Positions 1,428-64,000 of a stretch of 64,000 bases of DNA are shown piece after piece; the stretch's first letter is position 1; each line of letters starts with the position of its first letter. Both the position numbers and the translations under genes were made by a program. The DNA comes from Minisyncoccota bacterium (GTDB lineage Bacteria; Patescibacteriota; Minisyncoccia; Phycocordibacterales; UBA9973), in the NCBI GenBank assembly GCA_041675085.1, contig JBAYUN010000004.1, positions 2,032 through 66,031 on the forward strand, read 5' to 3'. The notes beneath the pieces are model-generated. The model saw nothing but the letters and a program-made list of their open reading frames with translations, made no database searches and was not told where the DNA came from.

Positions 1428-3389
1428 TTATTTATTCAAAATAACACGTGATTGAGGTCCTAGTATACCGTCAGCTTTTAGTCCGTTGTCCGCTTGGAAT
1501 TTCTTTAATGCTACTAGAGTATTGTAGCCAAATTGATTCACCTCTCTGCCCCCTTCTGTGCCAGATACGTTGTAACCTTTTTGATTAAGTTTTTGTTGCA
1601 AACATTTTACTTCATTTGAGTTCTTGCCTTTTAGTAAAGTCCTACTGATTGTACAAATATTTGAATTCTTAGAAATACTAGCTCCCAAGACTTGCCCTCC
1701 TACACATTCTGTACTCATTGAAGTTCTCGGGTAAGAACCAGTATTACCTGCTGCCTTCCAAGAGCTAATAGTTTCGGTCTTGTAGTCTCTAGTACTCGTA
1801 GCACTCGGATACCATTTTTGACAATAAGTTAATGGGTCGATATTGGCACCACTACTACCGTCTGGATCTGTTTGCCAAGTGCCAGATGAATCTGTATGTT
1901 GATTTACTTTACCATACCAAAATGAAATGCGTGGAGTTGTATCGACTGATGGAGTTGTAGGTTCTGCTGGGACCACAGGGTCAGGTGTGACAGGATCTGG
2001 AGTGACTGGGTCGGGAGTAGTCGGAGTTGTCGGTTCTGTTGGAGTGGTAGGTGTAGTTGGAGTCTCTACTGGTGTAGTAGGGGTGACTGGATTTACTGGT
2101 GTAACAGGATTTGTGCCTGGGTCTATGACCGGAGTCTCAGGATTTTCTCCTTTTTTATTGATAGTGAAAAAATCTTTTGAAAAATCTTCAGCTTTTTTAT
2201 CATAAGACTCTGGGCCTAGATGGATTTTAAAATTTTTACCAAATACTATGTCTGGGAAGGAGCCCACAGCTAGAGAAATTTTCTCTTCTCCATCATTCGG
2301 GGTACCCTTCACCAAAATAACAATATATTCTTTTTGATTATTTTTATATATTAAAGATATATTTATTTTTTTATCAGCTGAAGCTTTATTATTTTTCCAA
2401 GTTACTAAAATACTTTCATCTAGATTATAAACTTCTCCACCATTAGGTGAAGTAATTTTAAAGAAGTAAGAATTATTTTCATCTTCATCTATACCAGCTT
2501 GAATACATAAATAAGACAACTTTGTAGAAGTGTGATTATTAAAATTGTATCTCTCATGCCAAGTACTAATAGTCTCTAATTTGTATTCTTTGATGCCAAT
2601 AGTTTTTGGATACCATTTTTTACAATAAGTTAGATAATCTAAATTCGCACCAGAGATACCGTCGGGATCTGTTTCCCATTTACCATTGGTTGTATTAATA
2701 TGTTGATTTACTTTCCCCCACCAAAACATAACTCTAGGTAATAAATCATCACTACCTGGTTTGTCTTCTCCTTTCTTTTCTTCCACGATAGCATCATCTG
2801 ATTTTTTGTCTTCTGTTTTTACCTCTGTGGTTTTTGCCTCTTCTTTGACCTCGGTTTTCACTTCACTTACTACTTCTTTTTGAACTTCTTCTTTAGCTTC
2901 ATCTTTCTTCGATTCTGTTGCATTTTCTGAATTTTCTATTTTTTTATCTTCTTCTTTAATTTCTGTTTTTTCTACATCTTTGACTTCGTTGGACTGAGTC
3001 TCAGAAACAACACTTTCTTCTTTTTGGACTTCTTCTGTACAAGTTAATTTATTGATAGTCTCGCGAGTAAGTGGACCCACGAAGCCAGCAGAGACTAGAT
3101 TGTTGTCTCTTTGAAAAGTCCTAACAGCTCCTAAAGTCTGCTCTCCAAAGTATCCATTTGGTTCTGCTTTTAGATAACCTTTTTCTTTTAAGAAATTCTG
3201 CAACAACAAAACATCTCTTGTATTAGACGCTCTGTCAGAAGCACGATATCTCAAACTCTTATTAATAGAAACACAAACAGCAGAATTCTCTGTGTTTTGA
3301 ATTTGCTCTATTTCAGCATTTTGAGCAAAAGAAAAAATAGGGCTAATTATAAAAGTTAAAACCAATACAAGCTTTATGATTTTTTGCAT
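1428..3389 (-). CDS. Secreted cell-wall-associated protein: signal peptide, N- and C-terminal PG_binding_1 domains, Glu/Lys-rich and Pro/Thr-rich linkers, two copies of the YWWGKVNQH..LTYCKKWYP domain
   Basis: 653-aa ORF with PG-binding motifs (LQNFLKEKGY..FG..T..AV..FQ, and C-terminal VKCLQQKLNQKGY..DGILGP). The repeated modules are PRVMFWWGKVNQH.. and PRISFWYGKVNQH... Confidence 0.8.
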   Translation of the reverse strand: MQKIIKLVLVLTFIISPIFSFAQNAEIEQIQNTENSAVCVSINKSLRYRASDRASNTRDVLLLQNFLKEKGYLKAEPNGYFGEQTLGAVRTFQRDNNLVSAGFVGPLTRETINKLTCTEEVQKEESVVSETQSNEVKDVEKTEIKEEDKKIENSENATESKKDEAKEEVQKEVVSEVKTEVKEEAKTTEVKTEDKKSDDAIVEEKKGEDKPGSDDLLPRVMFWWGKVNQHINTTNGKWETDPDGISGANLDYLTYCKKWYPKTIGIKEYKLETISTWHERYNFNNHTSTKLSYLCIQAGIDEDENNSYFFKITSPNGGEVYNLDESILVTWKNNKASADKKINISLIYKNNQKEYIVILVKGTPNDGEEKISLAVGSFPDIVFGKNFKIHLGPESYDKKAEDFSKDFFTINKKGENPETPVIDPGTNPVTPVNPVTPTTPVETPTTPTTPTEPTTPTTPDPVTPDPVTPDPVVPAEPTTPSVDTTPRISFWYGKVNQHTDSSGTWQTDPDGSSGANIDPLTYCQKWYPSATSTRDYKTETISSWKAAGNTGSYPRTSMSTECVGGQVLGASISKNSNICTISRTLLKGKNSNEVKCLQQKLNQKGYNVSGTEGGREVNQFGYNTLVALKKFQADNGLKADGILGPQSRVILNK

Positions 3390-4634: not shown

Positions 4635-5114
4635 TTATTTTGTTTTAGCTACTTCATTAACTGCAATAGCCAAACGTTGCATCGGAGATTGCAATAAGAA
4701 TGCAACCTTTGAAAGCAACACTTCGCGACTAGGAATAGTAGCGATTTCTTTCATATATACTCCGTCCACAAATTTACCACCAAAGATACCACCTAAAATA
4801 TTTAGAGGAACTTTGTAAGTTTTTTGGAAATTGTATATTTCACGAGCTGGAGCTAATTCATCATCTGCATAAGCCATAGCGACTTCACCATTTAATTCTG
4901 GTAATTCACCAGTAGCCTTGCCGTCCAATGCACGCTTCAATAAAGTCTTGCGACTTATTTTGTAGCTCACTCCACTCTTTCTCAAGTCTTGACGCAAGAG
5001 AGTTTCGTCTCCTACTTTCAATCCATGGAAGTTTACGAAAACTACAGATTTACTATTAATAACTGCAGTCTCTAAACCTTTTATCATTTCTTCTTTTGTT
5101 GATTTTTTTAACAT
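4635..5114 (-). CDS. rplJ: 50S ribosomal protein L10
   Basis: Typical L10 sequence, lying upstream of rplL. Confidence 0.9.
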   Translation of the reverse strand: MLKKSTKEEMIKGLETAVINSKSVVFVNFHGLKVGDETLLRQDLRKSGVSYKISRKTLLKRALDGKATGELPELNGEVAMAYADDELAPAREIYNFQKTYKVPLNILGGIFGGKFVDGVYMKEIATIPSREVLLSKVAFLLQSPMQRLAIAVNEVAKTK

Positions 5115-10520: not shown

Positions 10521-10553
10521 CTGTGGATAACTATCCAAGGGCATCCCTTGGAT
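10521..10553 (+). repeat. REP element copy A (ctgtggataactatccaagggcatcccttggat); overlaps the 3' end / stop region of the RAYT gene
   Basis: Nested palindromes tggata-ac-tatcca and atccaaggg-cat-cccttggat. The element contains TGTGGATAA, the reverse complement of the DnaA-box consensus TTATCCACA. Confidence 0.85.
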
Positions 10554-11193
10554 GATTTAACCATTCGTCTATTTCTTTTAGAAAATCTTGCTTTGAAGTA
10601 AAATATTCTGGAAAAGCTTTTATGTTTAGAATCAACACTTCCCTTCTAGGTACTTCTAAAAAATCTAAATAGCTCGAGTTGCTGTAACTGTACAAATAAT
10701 CTTTAGTTTTAGATAAATCATTTATACCTTGCTCCTTCCAAGTTGGGTCAAAAATCTTTACAGGATTGAGGTGAATATACATAAAAATATATTTTAAATA
10801 TTCATCAGAATCTAAATGCTCGGCTCGGAACCTACCTTCAAACAATTTACCCGTCCTGTCGTACTTCTTGTTGAAATACATAGAATACGCAGTCGATAAT
10901 TTCTCCATAAAAATACTAATACCGTTTTCTTGTTTTTCTTTTAGCAATAAATGAAAATGATTTGGCATCAAACAATAACTGCCAATATCGACAAGAGTTT
11001 CGCCTCGTTCTATCTTGTCCAAGGGCACCCCTTGGATAGTTTTAAAGACAACTGGTTTCGAGCCATTGCATACAAATAAAAGCTTTATAAACCTCTTGTA
11101 GTCAAAATCATCCAAAAATATCAAGGATTTATTGTTTCCCCTATTGTAAACATGATAGTATTCGTTAATTGAAAAATTTATCTTTCTTTCCAT
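10531..11193 (-). CDS. tnpA_REP: REP-associated tyrosine transposase (RAYT, IS200/IS605-type Y1 HUH transposase)
   Basis: HUH motif (YCLMPNHFHLLL), the HVYNRGNN motif and conserved Tyr residues downstream. A degenerate REP lies inside the ORF (11027-11050). Confidence 0.8.
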   Translation of the reverse strand: MERKINFSINEYYHVYNRGNNKSLIFLDDFDYKRFIKLLFVCNGSKPVVFKTIQGVPLDKIERGETLVDIGSYCLMPNHFHLLLKEKQENGISIFMEKLSTAYSMYFNKKYDRTGKLFEGRFRAEHLDSDEYLKYIFMYIHLNPVKIFDPTWKEQGINDLSKTKDYLYSYSNSSYLDFLEVPRREVLILNIKAFPEYFTSKQDFLKEIDEWLNHPRDALG

Positions 11194-14280: not shown

Positions 14281-14604
14281 TTATTTTTGTTTTTTCTTTT
14301 CTAATAAGTACACACGAGAAGCTAGTTCGTCAAACATACGATGAGTAACAAATTTATCACCTAGATCCAACATATCTCTACGAGTTGCTTTAACATTTTC
14401 GTCTATTTGTTTTACTTTTTCATCTAAAGCATCAAACTTAGAATCTATGCCATCGAATTTAGCATCTATAGCATCAAATTTAGAATCTATACGTTCAAAT
14501 CCCTTAGCAGTCATAATAGCTAAGTTGTTTACAGTTTCTGAAAGATTGTTAACAGTACCTGCTAAATCTTCGATAGTCATTTTCTTTTTTACGACTTTCT
14601 TCAT
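14281..14604 (-). CDS. Small coiled-coil protein with 8-aa tandem repeats (SKFDAIDAKFDGIDSKFDALD)
   Basis: 107-aa ORF with about 24-bp periodicity in the DNA at roughly 14425-14500. Confidence 0.6.
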   Translation of the reverse strand: MKKVVKKKMTIEDLAGTVNNLSETVNNLAIMTAKGFERIDSKFDAIDAKFDGIDSKFDALDEKVKQIDENVKATRRDMLDLGDKFVTHRMFDELASRVYLLEKKKQK

Positions 14605-14610
14605 TCTTTA

Positions 14611-14640
14611 ATTATATCACACAAGAATTTTGTGATGCAA
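14611..14640 (-). promoter_or_regulatory. Sigma70-like promoter TTGCAT-N18-TATAAT only 6 nt upstream of the ATG, which predicts a leaderless transcript
   Basis: The minus-strand read is ttgcatcacaaaattcttgtgtgatataattaaagaATG. The sequence is identical at 16459-16488. Confidence 0.5.
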
Positions 14641-14925
14641 TCTGTATTTATAAAGGGTCTAAAAAAGGAGCTGTGGATAACTATCCAAGGGCATCCCTTG
14701 GATTGGGAGTTTTGGATTTTGGGAAGGTCGGACCTTCCCAGATTTTGGTTTCTTGGTCTTGGGTAGGTCTGACCTCCCCTTTTTAAAATACAAATTGGAA
14801 CGCAAAAAGCCCTCGCTTTCGCGAGGGCTTTTTGCTGCTTTTTACGGCATCCCCTAAAAGTTTTCTTCTTTATTATTTCTTATTTATAAGATTGCATTAT
14901 TCTTTTAGTTGAGTCAAACTTACAA
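14611..14925 (-). repeat. Composite intergenic cassette, unit 1: promoter + REP copy G (14670-14702) + gggaaggtc hairpins + conserved terminator (14803-14843) + AT-rich tail
   Basis: Long stretches are shared with the units at 15735-15955 and 16456-16732. Confidence 0.7.
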
Positions 14926-15649: not shown

Positions 15650-15734
15650 AAATAAAATTATACTATATTTTTTTCCTTCATTCAATACGATAAACATAAG
15701 CTGGATTTATGAAAGTTAATACATACAATCTGTT

Positions 15735-15955
15735 TTAAAACTAGGCTGTGGATAACTATCCAAGGGCATCCCTTGGATACGGGGTTTTGGTGAGTAGTGG
15801 GTAGTGGATATTGAGATTGGAACCCCAGTCAGTCGCGACTGACTGGGCAAGAACGCAAAAAGCCCTCGCTTTCGCGAGGGCTTTTTACTGCTTTTTGCGG
15901 CATCCCCTAAAAGTTTTCTTCTTTCTTATTTCTAAGATTGAATTATTCTTTTAGT
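15735..15955 (-). repeat. Composite cassette, unit 2: REP copy H (15746-15778) + 22-bp perfect palindrome ccagtcagtcgcgactgactgg (15825-15846) + terminator hairpin (15862-15881)
   Basis: Sequence identity with units 1 and 3 across aacgcaaaaagccctcgctttcgcgagggctttttgctgcttttt..attgaattattcttttagtt. Confidence 0.7.
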
Positions 15956-15963
15956 TCGAGATT

Positions 15964-16452
15964 TTAACTTAGAACTTTTTCTTCTAGGATTTCTATTCTT
16001 CTATCGTGATTATTTACAGTATCAGACATATCATCAAATTTTTCATTTAACTCTTTGAAGTTTTCTCTAGTTTCTATTTTAAATGATTTTAAATCTGTTT
16101 CAAGATTATTAAAATGAGTATTAGTTTCAAGTTTAAAAAGATTCAGATTAGTTTCTAAGCCATCAACTTTATCAGTTAGCTTAGAGACACTAATTGCAAC
16201 AGTTTCAACTAATTGAGTAAGGCTTCCTAGATCACTTTTTATATCAACTATGTCATTCTTAACACCAGCCATATCTCCTTTAAGACCACCTATGTCATTT
16301 TTAATGTCGAGCAAGTCTTCCTTGGTGGCGAAAGACTTTAGGTCTTCTTTGGTAGCGAAAGACTTTAGATCTTCTTTAGTGGCAAGATTTTCAAGATCTT
16401 TTTTGGTTAAGAATATTGAAGCTAATTTTTGTATGTCTTGATCTGTTAACAT
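15964..16452 (-). CDS. Coiled-coil tandem-repeat protein (LKSFATKEDL x3, 27-bp DNA repeats 16315-16395)
   Basis: 162-aa ORF; paralogous to 63119..63604 through the ATKEDL repeats, and shares its promoter with 14281..14604. Confidence 0.6.
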   Translation of the reverse strand: MLTDQDIQKLASIFLTKKDLENLATKEDLKSFATKEDLKSFATKEDLLDIKNDIGGLKGDMAGVKNDIVDIKSDLGSLTQLVETVAISVSKLTDKVDGLETNLNLFKLETNTHFNNLETDLKSFKIETRENFKELNEKFDDMSDTVNNHDRRIEILEEKVLS

Positions 16453-16455
16453 TCT

Positions 16456-16732
16456 TTAATTATATCACACAAGAATTTTGTGATGCAATCTGTATTTATA
16501 AAGGGTCTAAAAATGAACCTGTGGATAACTATCCAAGGGCATCCCTTGGATTTATGGTTTTGGGTTTTGGGGAGATCAGACCTTCCCTTTTCTTTTTTTT
16601 CCTTTTTTAAAATACAAATTGGAACGCAAAAAGCCCTCGCTTTCGCGGGGGCTTTTTGCTGCTTTTTACGGCATCCCTTAAAAGTTTTCTTCTTTCTTAT
16701 TTCTAAGATTGAATTATTCTTTTAGTTCAAAA
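16456..16732 (-). repeat. Composite cassette, unit 3: promoter (16459-16488) + REP copy I (16519-16551) + hairpin + terminator (16633-16652)
   Basis: As for units 1 and 2. Confidence 0.7.
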
Positions 16733-20046: not shown

Positions 20047-20640
20047 TATTTTTTTTAATTACGCCATTAATAAGTTTCGACAAAACTAAAAGCGTATTTT
20101 CTATCGTCCTCATCCCTACTTAATTAATAAATAATAATAATGCGTAGTGACTTGCGAGGACAAAAAGATTTGAACTAAACTTGAAAACATAACTAAAGAC
20201 ATTTGCAATTGTGATGCAAACATTTTTATTGTATTAAGTTTTCAATGACCTTTCTTTTACCGAATCTTTGCAATAAATTTATTTTACTAAACTTAAAACA
20301 AAGACAGGCTTTGATCCTTTGTGTACTAAATCTTTTCGACGAAATTTAGCAACAAGATCTTATACTATATATAAGTATGAGAATAAGACTTTCGTAAAAT
20401 TCTTCACACTAATAATATATACGTATACATTATAATATAGACTCTCGAATAAGAGCAATATTACAACGTGTGGATAACCGATAATTTCGCATAAGAAAAA
20501 TAAATTCTTCGCTAGTTACTCCACCTATCTATATTGGCATATTTTTGACATAAAAGCAAACACAAATTAGGTTCTAGTCGCTAGGTTCTAGGTTCTAGGA
20601 AAATGCAAAAATGCAAAAAACAAAGAAAGGTTATTAGAGA

Positions 20641-21564
20641 TTATTTTTTGAAAAAATATCTGGACCATCTCTTCTCCCCTGTCTTATACAATAGGTTGTC
20701 CTTTACCAGGGAGACGAGTTCTCTCTGGAGAGTCTTCTCACTCATGGTGGTGAATTGACCTTTTGAGAGGGAGCGAACTTCGGTTATCGTGAGTCCGTTA
20801 GGGTTGTCCTTTATCACGGATACTATCTCTGTACGGCGTTCTTGCTTGCTCGTGTTATCTTTGATATTCTCTTTATTTTTATCGTAAACTTTTGGAATAT
20901 TTTTGTTCGTATCTCCTGCCTTGGTCTTCGTCTTTGCTTCGATTTCTTTCAAAGCTTTGAGTAGGGTGCTACCCTTTTGGAGTCCGATATTGGTCGGAGC
21001 TTGTCTGATAGATTTCTTTAATCTCTCCATGTGTGACCTCTGATCTGCGTGAGAGAATTCTTGCTTTACTTCGAACATTTTAGGGCGAGATTCTAGTCTG
21101 TCTTTTATCTCGCGATTTGGATTTTGGAGAGCGTTTTGATTTTGAGTATTTTCTTCATCTTTGAATAAGTCAGATAGTACTTGGTCGCTGTAGGGATTCC
21201 TATTACCGAGAGAATCTTCGACTGACTTTTTGAAAAGATAGAATTCTTTTTTTAAGATATCGGCATTCATCTGAGACATGAGTTTTACATTACTTGAGAT
21301 GTCTAATAGAACTAGAGTTTGAGATATTTTATTTAGTAGTCCGATAGATATGTAGTCTGTCCTTGATGAGAAGGTAGATATGTCCGATATGATTTCTAGC
21401 CCTATATTTCTGAGTTTATTCCTTATGCCTTCTTGTTTGTCCATTATGTCCGTGACCATAAAGAGAGCTGTGATGAGTTTGTGAGACTTGGTGTAAGAGA
21501 AAGACAAAGTTGTGTCTTTTATATGAAAACCGATGTCTCTTGTATTGTTTTCATTATTTTCCAT
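20641..21564 (-). CDS. Hypothetical protein with a C-terminal winged-helix DNA-binding domain
   Basis: The C-terminus reads ..LTITEVRSLS..SEKTLQRELVSLVKDNLLYKTGEKRWSRY; the N-terminal 220 aa are unassigned. Confidence 0.5.
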   Translation of the reverse strand: MENNENNTRDIGFHIKDTTLSFSYTKSHKLITALFMVTDIMDKQEGIRNKLRNIGLEIISDISTFSSRTDYISIGLLNKISQTLVLLDISSNVKLMSQMNADILKKEFYLFKKSVEDSLGNRNPYSDQVLSDLFKDEENTQNQNALQNPNREIKDRLESRPKMFEVKQEFSHADQRSHMERLKKSIRQAPTNIGLQKGSTLLKALKEIEAKTKTKAGDTNKNIPKVYDKNKENIKDNTSKQERRTEIVSVIKDNPNGLTITEVRSLSKGQFTTMSEKTLQRELVSLVKDNLLYKTGEKRWSRYFFKK

Positions 21565-21606: not shown

Positions 21607-21715
21607 TTAGGTTCTAGTTTCTAGTTACTAGGGGCTAGGTTCTAAAATTAGTTTCTAGTTTCTAGTTGATAGGTTCTAGAAAGCAAACAACTAAACACTA
21701 GCACCTAGAAACTAA
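21607..21715. repeat. Array of CTAG-containing direct repeats (taggttctag / tagtttctag) phased at about 10-11 bp; shorter arrays at 20568-20599 and 26041-26068
   Basis: At least seven TTCTAG cores within 75 bp, in the divergent region between the winged-helix gene and ftsK. Confidence 0.6.
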
Positions 21716-62405: not shown

Positions 62406-62591
62406 TTACCAAGAAGATTTACGTACGCCTGGTAAATTACCTTCGTTTGCTTGCTCTCTAAAACAGATACGACATAAGTCGAAATCTCTCATATAACCCT
62501 TTCCGCGACCACAACGAAAACATCGATTCTTTTGACGAGTCGAAAATTTTGGGGTCTTTAGTGATCTTGCTATTACTGATGTTTTTGCCAT
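62406..62591 (-). CDS. rpsZ: 30S ribosomal protein S14 type Z (zinc-binding)
   Basis: C..C..C..C; 61 aa. Confidence 0.9.
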
Positions 62592-62727
62592 ATATAAATA
62601 TCGTCTTTTATCTAAGTGATATCTTGTGTAATTTCTTAAAGCTTCTTAAAAACCTTAAGGAGAAACACAGATCAGTCTTAAATAATGAAGACTTCTATAT
62701 CCTAGCAAATCTATAAAAATAAGTCAA

Positions 62728-62751
62728 CCCTGTCAGCCGCGACTGACGGGG
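62728..62751. repeat. Family-2 palindromic element (ccctgtcagccgcgactgacgggg), followed by a hairpin terminator at 62763-62783
   Basis: Seen directly in the sequence. Confidence 0.65.
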
Positions 62752-62798
62752 TCAAATAAAAAAGAGGTTATGTATTAACCTCTTTGTAATTTAAATTT

Positions 62799-63014
62799 CT
62801 AATTTTTAGGCAAAATTTTTAATCCTAGATGCGCAACCAGATATCCGATTAATAAAAAACCAAAAAACAAGGGCAAGAATCCTGATTCTACATAAAGATT
62901 ATTTAAAAATTCGGCATAACTCCTTATGCATAAAAGTGGATTCATGTCGCTCGCCTGCAAGCACAGAGTAAACCCCAATAAAAAAACAATTAAACCTAGA
63001 AAATTCCGAGCCAT
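62799..63014 (-). CDS. Small membrane peptide (71 aa), low confidence
   Basis: Hydrophobic ORF between two terminators. Confidence 0.3.
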   Translation of the reverse strand: MARNFLGLIVFLLGFTLCLQASDMNPLLCIRSYAEFLNNLYVESGFLPLFFGFLLIGYLVAHLGLKILPKN

Positions 63015-63118
63015 GGTTTTAAATTTTAAAAATGAAAAGAAATATTATTCCAACTCTTTATACCACAAAGTAATTAAAAAAACAAAATCCCTTTTCGGGG
63101 ATTTTTATTTTTATTAGT

Positions 63119-63604
63119 TTATTTACCCAAGAGTATTTCGTGACGAACTTCTTCTTTAAATGATTTCACATCTTGAGAAATACCAGTTATTTGGTCTTGT
63201 AGTCTTGCTTCGGTTTCTAGTAGGTCTGTTTTAGTAGCAAAAGCTTTTAAATCTTCTTTATTAGTCATATTTTCTAAAATATAAGCAGTAGTTTTTGCAA
63301 TTAAATCTACCTTTGTATCTGTTTCTAGCAAATCGGTTTTAGTGGCAAGAGCTTTTAAATCTTCTTTAGTAGCCATATTTTGCTCCAAAGTACTTAAATC
63401 TTCTTTAGTAGCCATATTTTGCTCCAAAGTACTTAAATCTTCTTTGGTGGCCATTTTTTGTTCCAAAGTACTTAAATCTTCTTTGGTCGCCATTTTTTGT
63501 TCCAAAGTACTTAAATCTTCTTTGGTCGCCATTTTTTGTTCCAAAGTAATAAACCTCCTATTTATAGATTCTAGTAATTCTTTATTGGAGATATCTTTTT
63601 CCAT
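63119..63604 (-). CDS. Coiled-coil tandem-repeat protein (TLEQKMATKEDLS x5), paralogue of 15964..16452
   Basis: Five head-to-tail 39-bp DNA repeats at 63356-63550. Confidence 0.6.
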   Translation of the reverse strand: MEKDISNKELLESINRRFITLEQKMATKEDLSTLEQKMATKEDLSTLEQKMATKEDLSTLEQNMATKEDLSTLEQNMATKEDLKALATKTDLLETDTKVDLIAKTTAYILENMTNKEDLKAFATKTDLLETEARLQDQITGISQDVKSFKEEVRHEILLGK

Positions 63605-63645
63605 GCAACTATTATAATATAAAAACTAAATTTGGGTCAACTCTA

Positions 63646-63659
63646 CCAGTCGCGACTGG
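63646..63659. repeat. Family-2 palindromic core ccagtcgcgactgg, with an adjacent terminator hairpin at 63675-63694
   Basis: Seen directly in the sequence. Confidence 0.55.
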
Positions 63660-63715
63660 AGGATAAAATAAAAAAGGCTCTAATTAAAGAGCCTTTTAAA
63701 AAAAATAACTAAAAG

Positions 63716-63985
63716 TTAGACACCTAGTTCTGCTTTAGATTGCAGGATTTTATCTTTAATTGAGATATAATCTTTTTGATTTTCAAATTTAGGATCTAGG
63801 CAAAGACCCATTGAATTATTAACCATCTTAAATTCTTCATCATCAAAAAACAATTTTTCCAAACTAAATGCAGACCAATAATTATCACAAGCTTTATTTT
63901 CAAAAACAAAGTTGAGATCAAAAGCTGAAAAATAACCTTCATCAAGAGCAAAATACTCACTATATAAAATTTGTACTTCTGACAA
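63716..63985 (-). CDS. Hypothetical protein (may continue past the right edge)
   Basis: 89-aa ORF. Confidence 0.3.
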   Translation of the reverse strand: MSEVQILYSEYFALDEGYFSAFDLNFVFENKACDNYWSAFSLEKLFFDDEEFKMVNNSMGLCLDPKFENQKDYISIKDKILQSKAELGV

Positions 63986-64000
63986 TTTTAATTTTTCATC

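Follow-up and report, generated by a model that had tools for sequence, protein, structure and literature searches.

Three tandem-repeat genes of a Minisyncoccota bacterium probably encode alpha/beta coiled-coil rods with a labile number of units

What do genes built of in-frame tandem DNA repeats encode, and what does a change in repeat number do to their products? The question is raised by three genes, here called P1, P2 and P3, in a 64,000-nucleotide stretch of a Minisyncoccota bacterium (GenBank assembly GCA_041675085.1, contig JBAYUN010000004.1, positions 2,032 to 66,031; this whole stretch is the window in what follows), which is AT-rich (34.6% GC) and, since it holds the 5' end of a 23S rRNA, a tmRNA and ribosomal operons, belongs to a bacterial chromosome. 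An earlier note, made from the sequence alone, had taken the three genes for coiled-coil proteins without assignable homologue and for candidate hypervariable or contingency loci. The best-supported answer is that they are alpha/beta coiled-coil rods of a known structural class, and that their repeat variation has a described analogue. The genes and their arrays, with the evidence for each in brackets, are the following.

63119-63604, minus strand: P1, an acidic coiled-coil protein of 161 aa with eight beta-layer motifs (open reading frame (ORF), motif scan, match to 5APZ, orthologue series)
63353-63547, minus strand: five head-to-tail 39-bp units in P1, of subtypes A, A, A', B and B' (Tandem Repeats Finder (TRF) and unit-by-unit reading)
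15964-16452, minus strand: P2, a coiled-coil protein of 162 aa (ORF, match to 5APZ)
16315-16383, minus strand: 27-bp (9-aa nonad) tandem array in P2 (TRF)
14281-14604, minus strand: P3, a heptad coiled-coil protein of 107 aa (ORF, sub-threshold DUF16 match)
14422-14500, minus strand: 21-bp (7-aa heptad) tandem array in P3 (TRF)

All three arrays are in frame, each inside a minus-strand ORF, and their TRF scores are the top three of the window: 325 for P1 (63355-63548, period 39, 5.0 copies, 96% matches), 110 for P2 (27 bp, 2.6 copies, 88% matches) and 95-98 for P3 (3.3-3.8 copies). The next distinct array scores 60, and the best score (periods of at least 9) in each of 30 windows simulated from a first-order Markov model lay between 39 and 62. 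The 39-bp and 27-bp arrays, and the description of the three ORFs as coiled-coil proteins of in-frame tandem units, were thus as first described; the third array, put at about 24 bp, has a period of 21 bp, i.e. seven residues.

The P1 units had been read as five copies of a single 13-residue peptide, two of them identical at the DNA level. Units 1 and 2 (63547-63509 and 63508-63470, read on the coding strand) are indeed identical and unit 3 is one synonymous base away from them, but units 4 and 5, which share 37 of 39 bases, are of another subtype, set apart from units 1-3 by a K-to-N replacement and three synonymous changes, and unit 5 ends in K instead of S. There are thus three peptide variants: TLEQKMATKEDLS (three copies), TLEQNMATKEDLS and TLEQNMATKEDLK (one each). 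Because the differences between units are almost all synonymous, K to N being the exception, the unit sequence is under purifying selection, which gives no support to hypervariability in sequence.

A published structural class accounts for these units. In trimeric prokaryotic coiled coils, beta-layers have the consensus [aliphatic]-A-T-K-[polar]-[DE]; they are the product of 6- or 9-residue insertions in a heptad background, with nonads in the register a-b-c-beta3-e-f-g and hexads in the register e-f-g/c-beta3-e-f-g (Hartmann et al. 2016, eLife, PMC4786415). Crystal structures show the layer to consist of the MAT residues of three chains, after which the chain re-enters at heptad position e (PMC4786415). 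Its members are found in crenarchaea, as the DUF3782 stalks of PD-(D/E)XK nucleases, and in bacteria, as stand-alone proteins; Thermosinus Tcar0761, with its 14 MATKDDIAN nonads, is one of the latter (PMC4786415).

Both P1 and P2 agree with this consensus and with these register rules (PMC4786415). Exact [MLIVF]-A-T-K-x-[DE] motifs occur seven times in P1 (five MATKED, LATKTD and FATKTD, beside the variant MTNKED) and three times in P2 (beside LTKKDL), and no other open frame of at least 40 aa in the window has an ATK-type motif. Their spacing is 13 residues in P1, where the 39-bp unit encodes the hexad MAT-KED and the heptad LSTLEQK with leucines at a and d, and nine in P2, where the 27-bp unit encodes the nonad FAT-KED-LKS with leucine at a. 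The N-terminal nonad block of P2 reads LTKKDLEN / LATKEDLKS / FATKEDLKS / FATKEDLLD and gives way to canonical heptads, followed by a conserved C-terminal core, FKLETNTHFNNLETDLKSFK...HDRRIEILEEKV. The ATKEDL sequence, earlier called heptad-like, is therefore the element that interrupts the heptads. The 21-bp unit of P3 encodes a plain heptad (IDSKFDA / IDAKFDG / IDSKFDA / LDEKVKQ / IDENVKA).

Nor did the claim survive that no homologue can be assigned: there are 581 matches, the motif is published, and phmmer against PDB sequences finds 5APZ_A, a construct of the alpha/beta coiled coil Tcar0761, with P1 (E 1e-5) and with P2 (E 4.2e-5, nonads in register). Among the 120 best P1 homologues, motif spacings are 6 or 9 plus multiples of 7, most often 13 (274 cases, a sample that leans to 13 because the query is itself 13-spaced), 9 (233) and 20 (59). 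Near-perfect runs of the motif are found in many unrelated lineages (e.g. P0003, P0007, P0015, P0017 and P0137). An AlphaFold2 model of the P1 monomer is all helix and breaks on four of the eight motifs.

Several observations weigh against this assignment. The similarities to PDB and Pfam entries are short and compositionally biased, and no Pfam family is convincingly passed, P2 reaching 26.3 bits against DUF2730 (cut-off 24.9); scans of the three proteins against Pfam, NCBIfam, PHROGs and PADLOC returned generic coiled-coil noise only. The motif scan found no exact ATK motif in P3. The P1 model is of low confidence (predicted local distance difference test (pLDDT) score 68, predicted template modelling score 0.24), and the prediction of a monomer cannot address trimers or beta-layers. 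The best PDB match of P1 (E 1e-9) is the 5x Myc tag of a flagellin construct, in which EQKLISEEDL is aligned to EQKMATKEDL; we discarded this match as coincidence. Finally, an assembly identical to the window elsewhere has three P1 units instead of five, exactly the pattern (A,A to A; B,B' to B') to be expected if perfect duplicates had collapsed in assembly. We also note that the repeat peptide LEQKMATKEDL at P1 residues 20-84 (63353-63547) resembles the Myc tag EQKLISEEDL closely enough to be a trap for automated annotation.

On balance we think it probable that two of the proteins, P1 and P2, are small, soluble and assembled into parallel homotrimeric alpha/beta coiled-coil rods with a labile number of units; P3 can be included more loosely. 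A trimeric state with beta-layers is what the motif and its register most likely imply for P1 and P2. None of the three proteins has a hydrophobic stretch of transmembrane length (maximum 19-residue Kyte-Doolittle mean 0.47-0.96), as a surface protein of the kind earlier suggested might have, nor do they contain Cys, Pro or Trp; their net charges are -10, -11 and +2, P1 and P2 being acidic. A cytoplasmic location would fit these features, and our best guess for a cellular role is that of a scaffold or spacer rod.

In such a rod, short heptad helices would be broken at each [aliphatic]-A-T-K-x-[D/E] motif, where the three chains would together form a three-residue beta-layer before resuming helix at heptad position e. 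One DNA tandem unit would equal one structural unit (hexad plus heptad for 39 bp, nonad for 27 bp, heptad for 21 bp), and replication slippage or unequal recombination between units, the presumed mechanism, would add or remove whole structural units, at about 2 nm of rod per 13-mer by our estimate, which takes a rise of about 0.15 nm per residue as standard for coiled coils. With each DNA unit a structural unit, gain and loss would stay both in frame and in register; being structurally tolerated, such changes would allow the arrays to grow and shrink in the course of evolution, possibly also inside populations, and would explain the recent amplification in P1 and the series of orthologue lengths described below.

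How are the three genes related to each other? Paralogy of all three had been proposed. It holds for P1 and P2, which match each other in BLASTP (E 3e-10) and share the core DLIAKTTAxILExMATKxDL...DxKSFKxE in the family alignment; they are related beyond the repeats. P3 is more loosely tied to them, by a weak match to the P2 C-terminus (E 7e-5) and by P0130, in which the N-terminal module of the P3 family, MTIDDLAIMVANGF, stands unchanged on a P2-type C-terminus; modules are therefore shuffled among family members. Of 1.84 billion cluster representatives, a profile of the P2 core (FKLETNxHFNNLETDLKSFK...HDKRIExLEEKV) collects 139 at E <= 1e-3; nearly all of these have 55-230 aa and none has an informative domain fusion. 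No conserved small partner gene lies 3' of family members, the downstream ORFs being mutually unrelated. AlphaFold2 predicts a single 90-residue helix for the core family member P0126 (pLDDT 85). The genes belong to a mosaic family of stand-alone Patescibacteria proteins of 55-230 aa, each with its own strong promoter, a predicted leaderless mRNA and its own terminator, and the alpha/beta coiled coil offers a structural explanation for these three "hypothetical" genes and for many similar ones in Patescibacteria.

Comparison with described systems sharpens this placement. Proteins of the Tcar0761 type (5APZ) share with P1 and P2 the beta-layer motif, the nonad spacing (as in P2), the hexad-in-heptad spacing (as in P1), a direct sequence match, near-perfect tandem repetition and the lack of a nuclease domain, but P1-P3 are much shorter (107-162 aa), P1 repeats a 13-residue unit and not nonads, and the three are members of a family that is restricted to Patescibacteria and has a conserved core of its own. 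In the DUF3782 and PDDEXK_10 family a C-terminal PD-(D/E)XK nuclease (PF07788) follows the stalk; P1, P2 and P3 match neither PF07788 nor PF12644 and end within the coiled coil, without a nuclease domain. The DUF1640/CCDC90-like proteins (MCUR1) have the same ATK-type motif at the start of a trimeric stalk, and the bacterial members P0129, P0198 and P0239 have expanded FATKEDLK nonads, yet P1-P3 lack both the N-terminal head and the C-terminal transmembrane helix of these proteins and do not match PF07798.

The closest described analogue is the DUF16/RepMP1 family of Mycoplasma pneumoniae, likewise a set of paralogous small coiled-coil proteins in a reduced genome. DUF16 coiled coils are made of tandem repeats of 21 nt (7 aa); strains differ in the number of repeats, which serves for typing by multiple-locus variable-number tandem-repeat (VNTR) analysis, and the proximal and distal modules of the proteins are swapped as a mosaic via short repeats in or beside the genes (PMC3472980). 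The DUF16 member MPN010 (2BA2) is a trimer with internal beta-layers, and P3 carries a DUF16-like segment, FVTHRMFDEL. The likeness is one of analogy, with membership below the Pfam threshold: against DUF16 (PF01519, threshold 40 bits) P3 scores 20.5 bits (E 7e-4) and P2 13.3 bits, and 19 of 20 family members match sub-threshold, the best at E 1.6e-4. Two differences stand out, in that ATK nonads and 13-mers are not a reported feature of DUF16, and the repeat beside the genes is here a palindrome that accompanies an IS200-like Y1 transposase, not RepMP1.

Does the number of units in fact vary? P1 orthologues of related metagenome-assembled genomes (MAGs) and metagenome contigs occupy the same gap between rplE (L5) and rpsN (S14), seen in eight distinct contigs, and differ in length and in 13-mers as follows.

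L005: 66 aa, no 13-mers
L004 and L006: 74 aa, no 13-mers
L015: 84 aa, no 13-mers
L002: 107 aa, one 13-mer
L003 (= L001): 124 aa, two 13-mers
L009: 135 aa, three 13-mers
P1 of the window: 161 aa, five 13-mers

A second site of gain and loss in these orthologues is formed by nonads after ILENM. The other two genes behave alike: P2 orthologues have no nonads (P0122) or four (P0123), and those of P3 (P0236 and P0235) fewer or different heptads. As judged from these comparisons, length variability of P1 is supported on an evolutionary scale, which bears out the earlier expectation among orthologues (66-161 aa). This natural series from zero to five units at one conserved locus suggests that beta-layer units act as insertable modules of the rod, a modularity relevant to the structural biology of coiled coils and to protein design.

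Within a population the picture is less clear. The 135-aa variant lies on a 529-kb MEGAHIT contig of the same genome. L009 and L022, both from this contig, show 100% identity with the window along 5.6 kb and 14.5 kb, and the distance from P1 to P2 differs between contig and window by exactly 78 bp, or two units (A, A', B' against A, A, A', B, B'). P2 and P3 are the same in both assemblies, and P2 is identical to a protein annotated on this contig in a Candidatus Paceibacterota MAG. The three units could be either a real polymorphism or assembly collapse. According to the latter explanation, the arrays are labile in evolution and stable in populations, and the three-unit version is a collapsed copy of a true array of five; we regard this as quite possible, if short of an even case. 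L009 keeps every distinct unit exactly once, as a minimal path in a de Bruijn graph would, the flanks are all 100% identical, short-read contigs break at the array, and the nearest other species differs by whole units and is 85-88% identical in nucleotides elsewhere; against this, k=141 should resolve a 195-bp array with three distinguishable unit types, a real three-unit allele fits the data equally, and the window and the 529-kb contig may stem from different reads.

The breaks themselves are informative. A Logan contig from run SRR6484325 (L007, the same as L012), 100% identical to the window, starts at the first 31-mer that tells unit 5 from unit 4, so units 4 and 5 are both present in that run; L001, from the L003 species, also begins inside its own array. 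An exact lookup of ten hypothetical P1 copy-number variants among 15 billion proteins found none, which is uninformative because the 135-aa variant of L009 is missing there too; P1 itself is not on record by exact sequence. For minisatellites of this kind, copy numbers in short-read MAGs are unreliable. Should the difference between three and five units be real, the array could conveniently serve to tell strains of this uncultured lineage apart.

The same observations bear on the proposal that these are contingency or hypervariable loci, at which repeats would make the surface or host-interaction proteins of an episymbiont change often and reversibly. Like classical contingency loci the genes have tandem repeats in the coding region that are prone to slippage, the units include perfect ones, two otherwise identical assemblies differ by two units, the contigs L001 and L007/L012 start inside arrays, SRR6484325 contains the duplication of units 4 and 5, and P2 and P3 have large secreted peptidoglycan-binding proteins on either side, in an island rich in repeats. 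However, the units of 21-39 bp are all multiples of three nucleotides; every change is therefore in frame and there is no switch that turns expression on or off. The products have no signal peptide, transmembrane segment or anchor and nothing marks them as surface proteins, the unit sequence is conserved with synonymous differences, P2 and P3 do not differ between the assemblies, P1 sits at a conserved site inside a ribosomal-protein operon, and the IMG/VR and PADLOC scans found no viral or defence relatives. We therefore consider contingency unlikely; a minisatellite that stays in frame within a coiled-coil gene is not by itself the mark of a contingency locus.

The position of P1 raises the further question of whether the family is tied to the ribosome. 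The signals around P1, and the promoter modules of the other two genes, are these.

63611-63640, minus strand: promoter-like site TTGACC-18-TATAAT of P1 (consensus scan, 11 of 12 matches)
63672-63697, minus strand: terminator-like hairpin ending the gene upstream of P1
63084-63105, minus strand: terminator-like hairpin just past the P1 stop codon
14605-14665, minus strand: P3 promoter module, identical to that of P2
16453-16513, minus strand: P2 promoter module, identical to that of P3

The upstream hairpin insulates P1 from read-through, and a leaderless mRNA is implied by the position of the -10 hexamer, whose end is 6 nt from the ATG; with its own promoter and terminator, P1 is a self-contained monocistronic unit within a split ribosomal operon. 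The identical promoter reported earlier for two of the genes was confirmed upstream of P2 and P3 (62 of 62 bp, 14604-14665 = 16452-16513), with an extended -10 element, TGATATAAT, that likewise ends 6 nt before the ATG and an inverted repeat, CACAA-N5-TTGTG, in the spacer. In 13 of the 65 genes of the window a hexamer TATAAT, or a variant of it with one base changed, has its end exactly 6 nt ahead of the ATG, which implies that leaderless mRNAs are widespread in this genome; a clear Shine-Dalgarno sequence is found in 2-3 of the 65. Gene starts in this survey include those at 3389, 10477, 14170, 14604, 16452, 21564, 21742, 34181, 50358, 58729 and 63604.

A link to translation, for instance as a phylum-specific ribosome-associated factor, is suggested by the location of core-type members within or next to ribosomal gene clusters, for which four layouts were seen: rplE / P1 / rpsN, in the eight contigs mentioned above; rplJ-rplL-x-mechanosensitive (MS) channel / gene / rRNA (L016, L020 and L021); infA / gene / x / rpsM (L024 and L025); and rplS / gene (L026-L028). 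The family profile also gave a weak match to the Borrelia hibernation factor 8FMW_W (E 0.008), which we rejected as spurious: the family is predicted by AlphaFold2 to be a single long helix, while the factor has an alpha/beta fold, and no family member matches the Pfam family of hibernation factors. Yet each gene has its own promoter and terminators, P2, P3 and P0223 lie outside ribosomal contexts, only seven contexts have been sampled, and P1 is missing from relatives whose operons are 97.6% identical (L010 and L014) as well as from L011 and L013; P1 is thus dispensable. Such a tie seems to us improbable. No more credit can be given to a composite version, in which Patescibacteria-specific alpha/beta rods are coupled to the translation apparatus and their length is tuned by VNTR-like gain and loss of units within populations. 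In the window, the slot between the MS-channel gene (580-1272) and the 23S rRNA (1-175) is empty, with no family member.

The rplE-rpsN gap (window 62592-64000; L002, L003, L009, L010, L011, L013 and L015) is itself a variable islet of the spc operon in this clade. In some relatives it is empty (about 250 nt), in the 97.6%-identical ones it holds only a 67-aa membrane ORF, and in this genome it has up to four or five accessory ORFs, P1 among them. The adjacent ribosomal protein S14 (62406-62591) is of the short zinc type (61 aa, CxxC...CxxC), whereas a relative has the long type (L003, 1138-1407; 89 aa); as the genes around S14 are about 86% identical between the window and this relative, the S14 type has been swapped between close lineages.

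The setting of P2 and P3 is different, a 6-kb island rich in repeats with large secreted peptidoglycan-binding proteins on both sides. The island also holds an NYN-domain protein, an IS200-like Y1 transposase, and HicA together with the partner gene upstream of it. Each of its intergenic regions contains a 33-bp palindromic element and repeated terminator modules; in a related genome only the P3 orthologue is found at the island site. Two of the palindromic elements, which resemble repetitive extragenic palindromic (REP) sequences, stand next to the promoter modules.

14671-14703, plus strand: 33-bp REP-like element just upstream of the P3 promoter module
16519-16551, plus strand: 33-bp REP-like element just upstream of the P2 promoter module

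This neighbourhood bears on a last explanation, a phage origin of the proteins, be it as structural components (for example tail-fibre stalks) or as lysis proteins (for example of the XhlA kind). Phage fibres often contain beta-layers (PMC4786415), and there are weak matches to PHROGs of unknown function and to "hemolysin"/XhlA families, but these matches have E values of 4e-6 or above and cover coiled-coil segments only. IMG/VR scans with P1 and with the P2-family alignment confirmed no relative, the neighbours (HicA, the NYN-domain protein, peptidoglycan-binding proteins and ribosomal genes) include no phage genes, and P1-P3, unlike XhlA, have no transmembrane segment. A phage origin is therefore very unlikely, and the role in phage or host interaction that the earlier note had allowed for finds no support; the PADLOC scan of the three proteins matched no defence family.

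The REP-like element, CTGTGGATAACTATCCAAGGGCATCCCTTGGAT, has a GTGG head and a palindrome with a 9-bp stem, and occurs in seven copies between 10521 and 16551, one per intergenic region. The Y1 transposase gene (10531-11193, minus strand; Pfam Y1_Tnp, E 6.5e-9) is flanked by REP-like copies, ends inside one of them and has a degenerate copy within its coding sequence; a related genome (L023) has only two copies, at 5049 and 5740, which flank the transposase. Together these look like a system of REP elements and a REP-associated tyrosine transposase in a Patescibacterium, for which we dropped a reading of the 10.5-16.7 kb island as integron-like cassettes. The intergenic regions of P2 and P3, about 300 bp each and 85% alike, belong to a set of repeats (14605-14910, 15700-15960 and 16453-16727) in which a terminator hairpin module and variable GC-rich hairpins are combined with the REP-like element and the promoter module, their similarity ending exactly at the start codon. 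These repeats, over which no Rfam family was found, may promote rearrangement of cassettes.

The DnaA-box 9-mer, TTATCCACA, is present in 12 perfect copies in 64 kb where roughly 0.5 are expected; seven copies are part of the REP-like elements, the others lie at 1410, 3431, 14938, 20469 and 44773, and the GC skew of the window has no clear origin signal. The copy at 20469 is near CTAG-rich heptamers, TAGGTTC / TAGTTTC (20568-20599, 4.6 copies, and 21608-21680, about 10 copies), which flank both sides of an unannotated 307-aa gene (20641-21564) in a divergent region beside the FtsK gene. Near the start of the window, a 653-aa protein (1428-3389, minus strand) combines peptidoglycan-binding domains with a match to Pfam APP_N (E 7.8e-14), the N-terminal heparin-binding domain of amyloid A4, which is unexpected in a bacterium.

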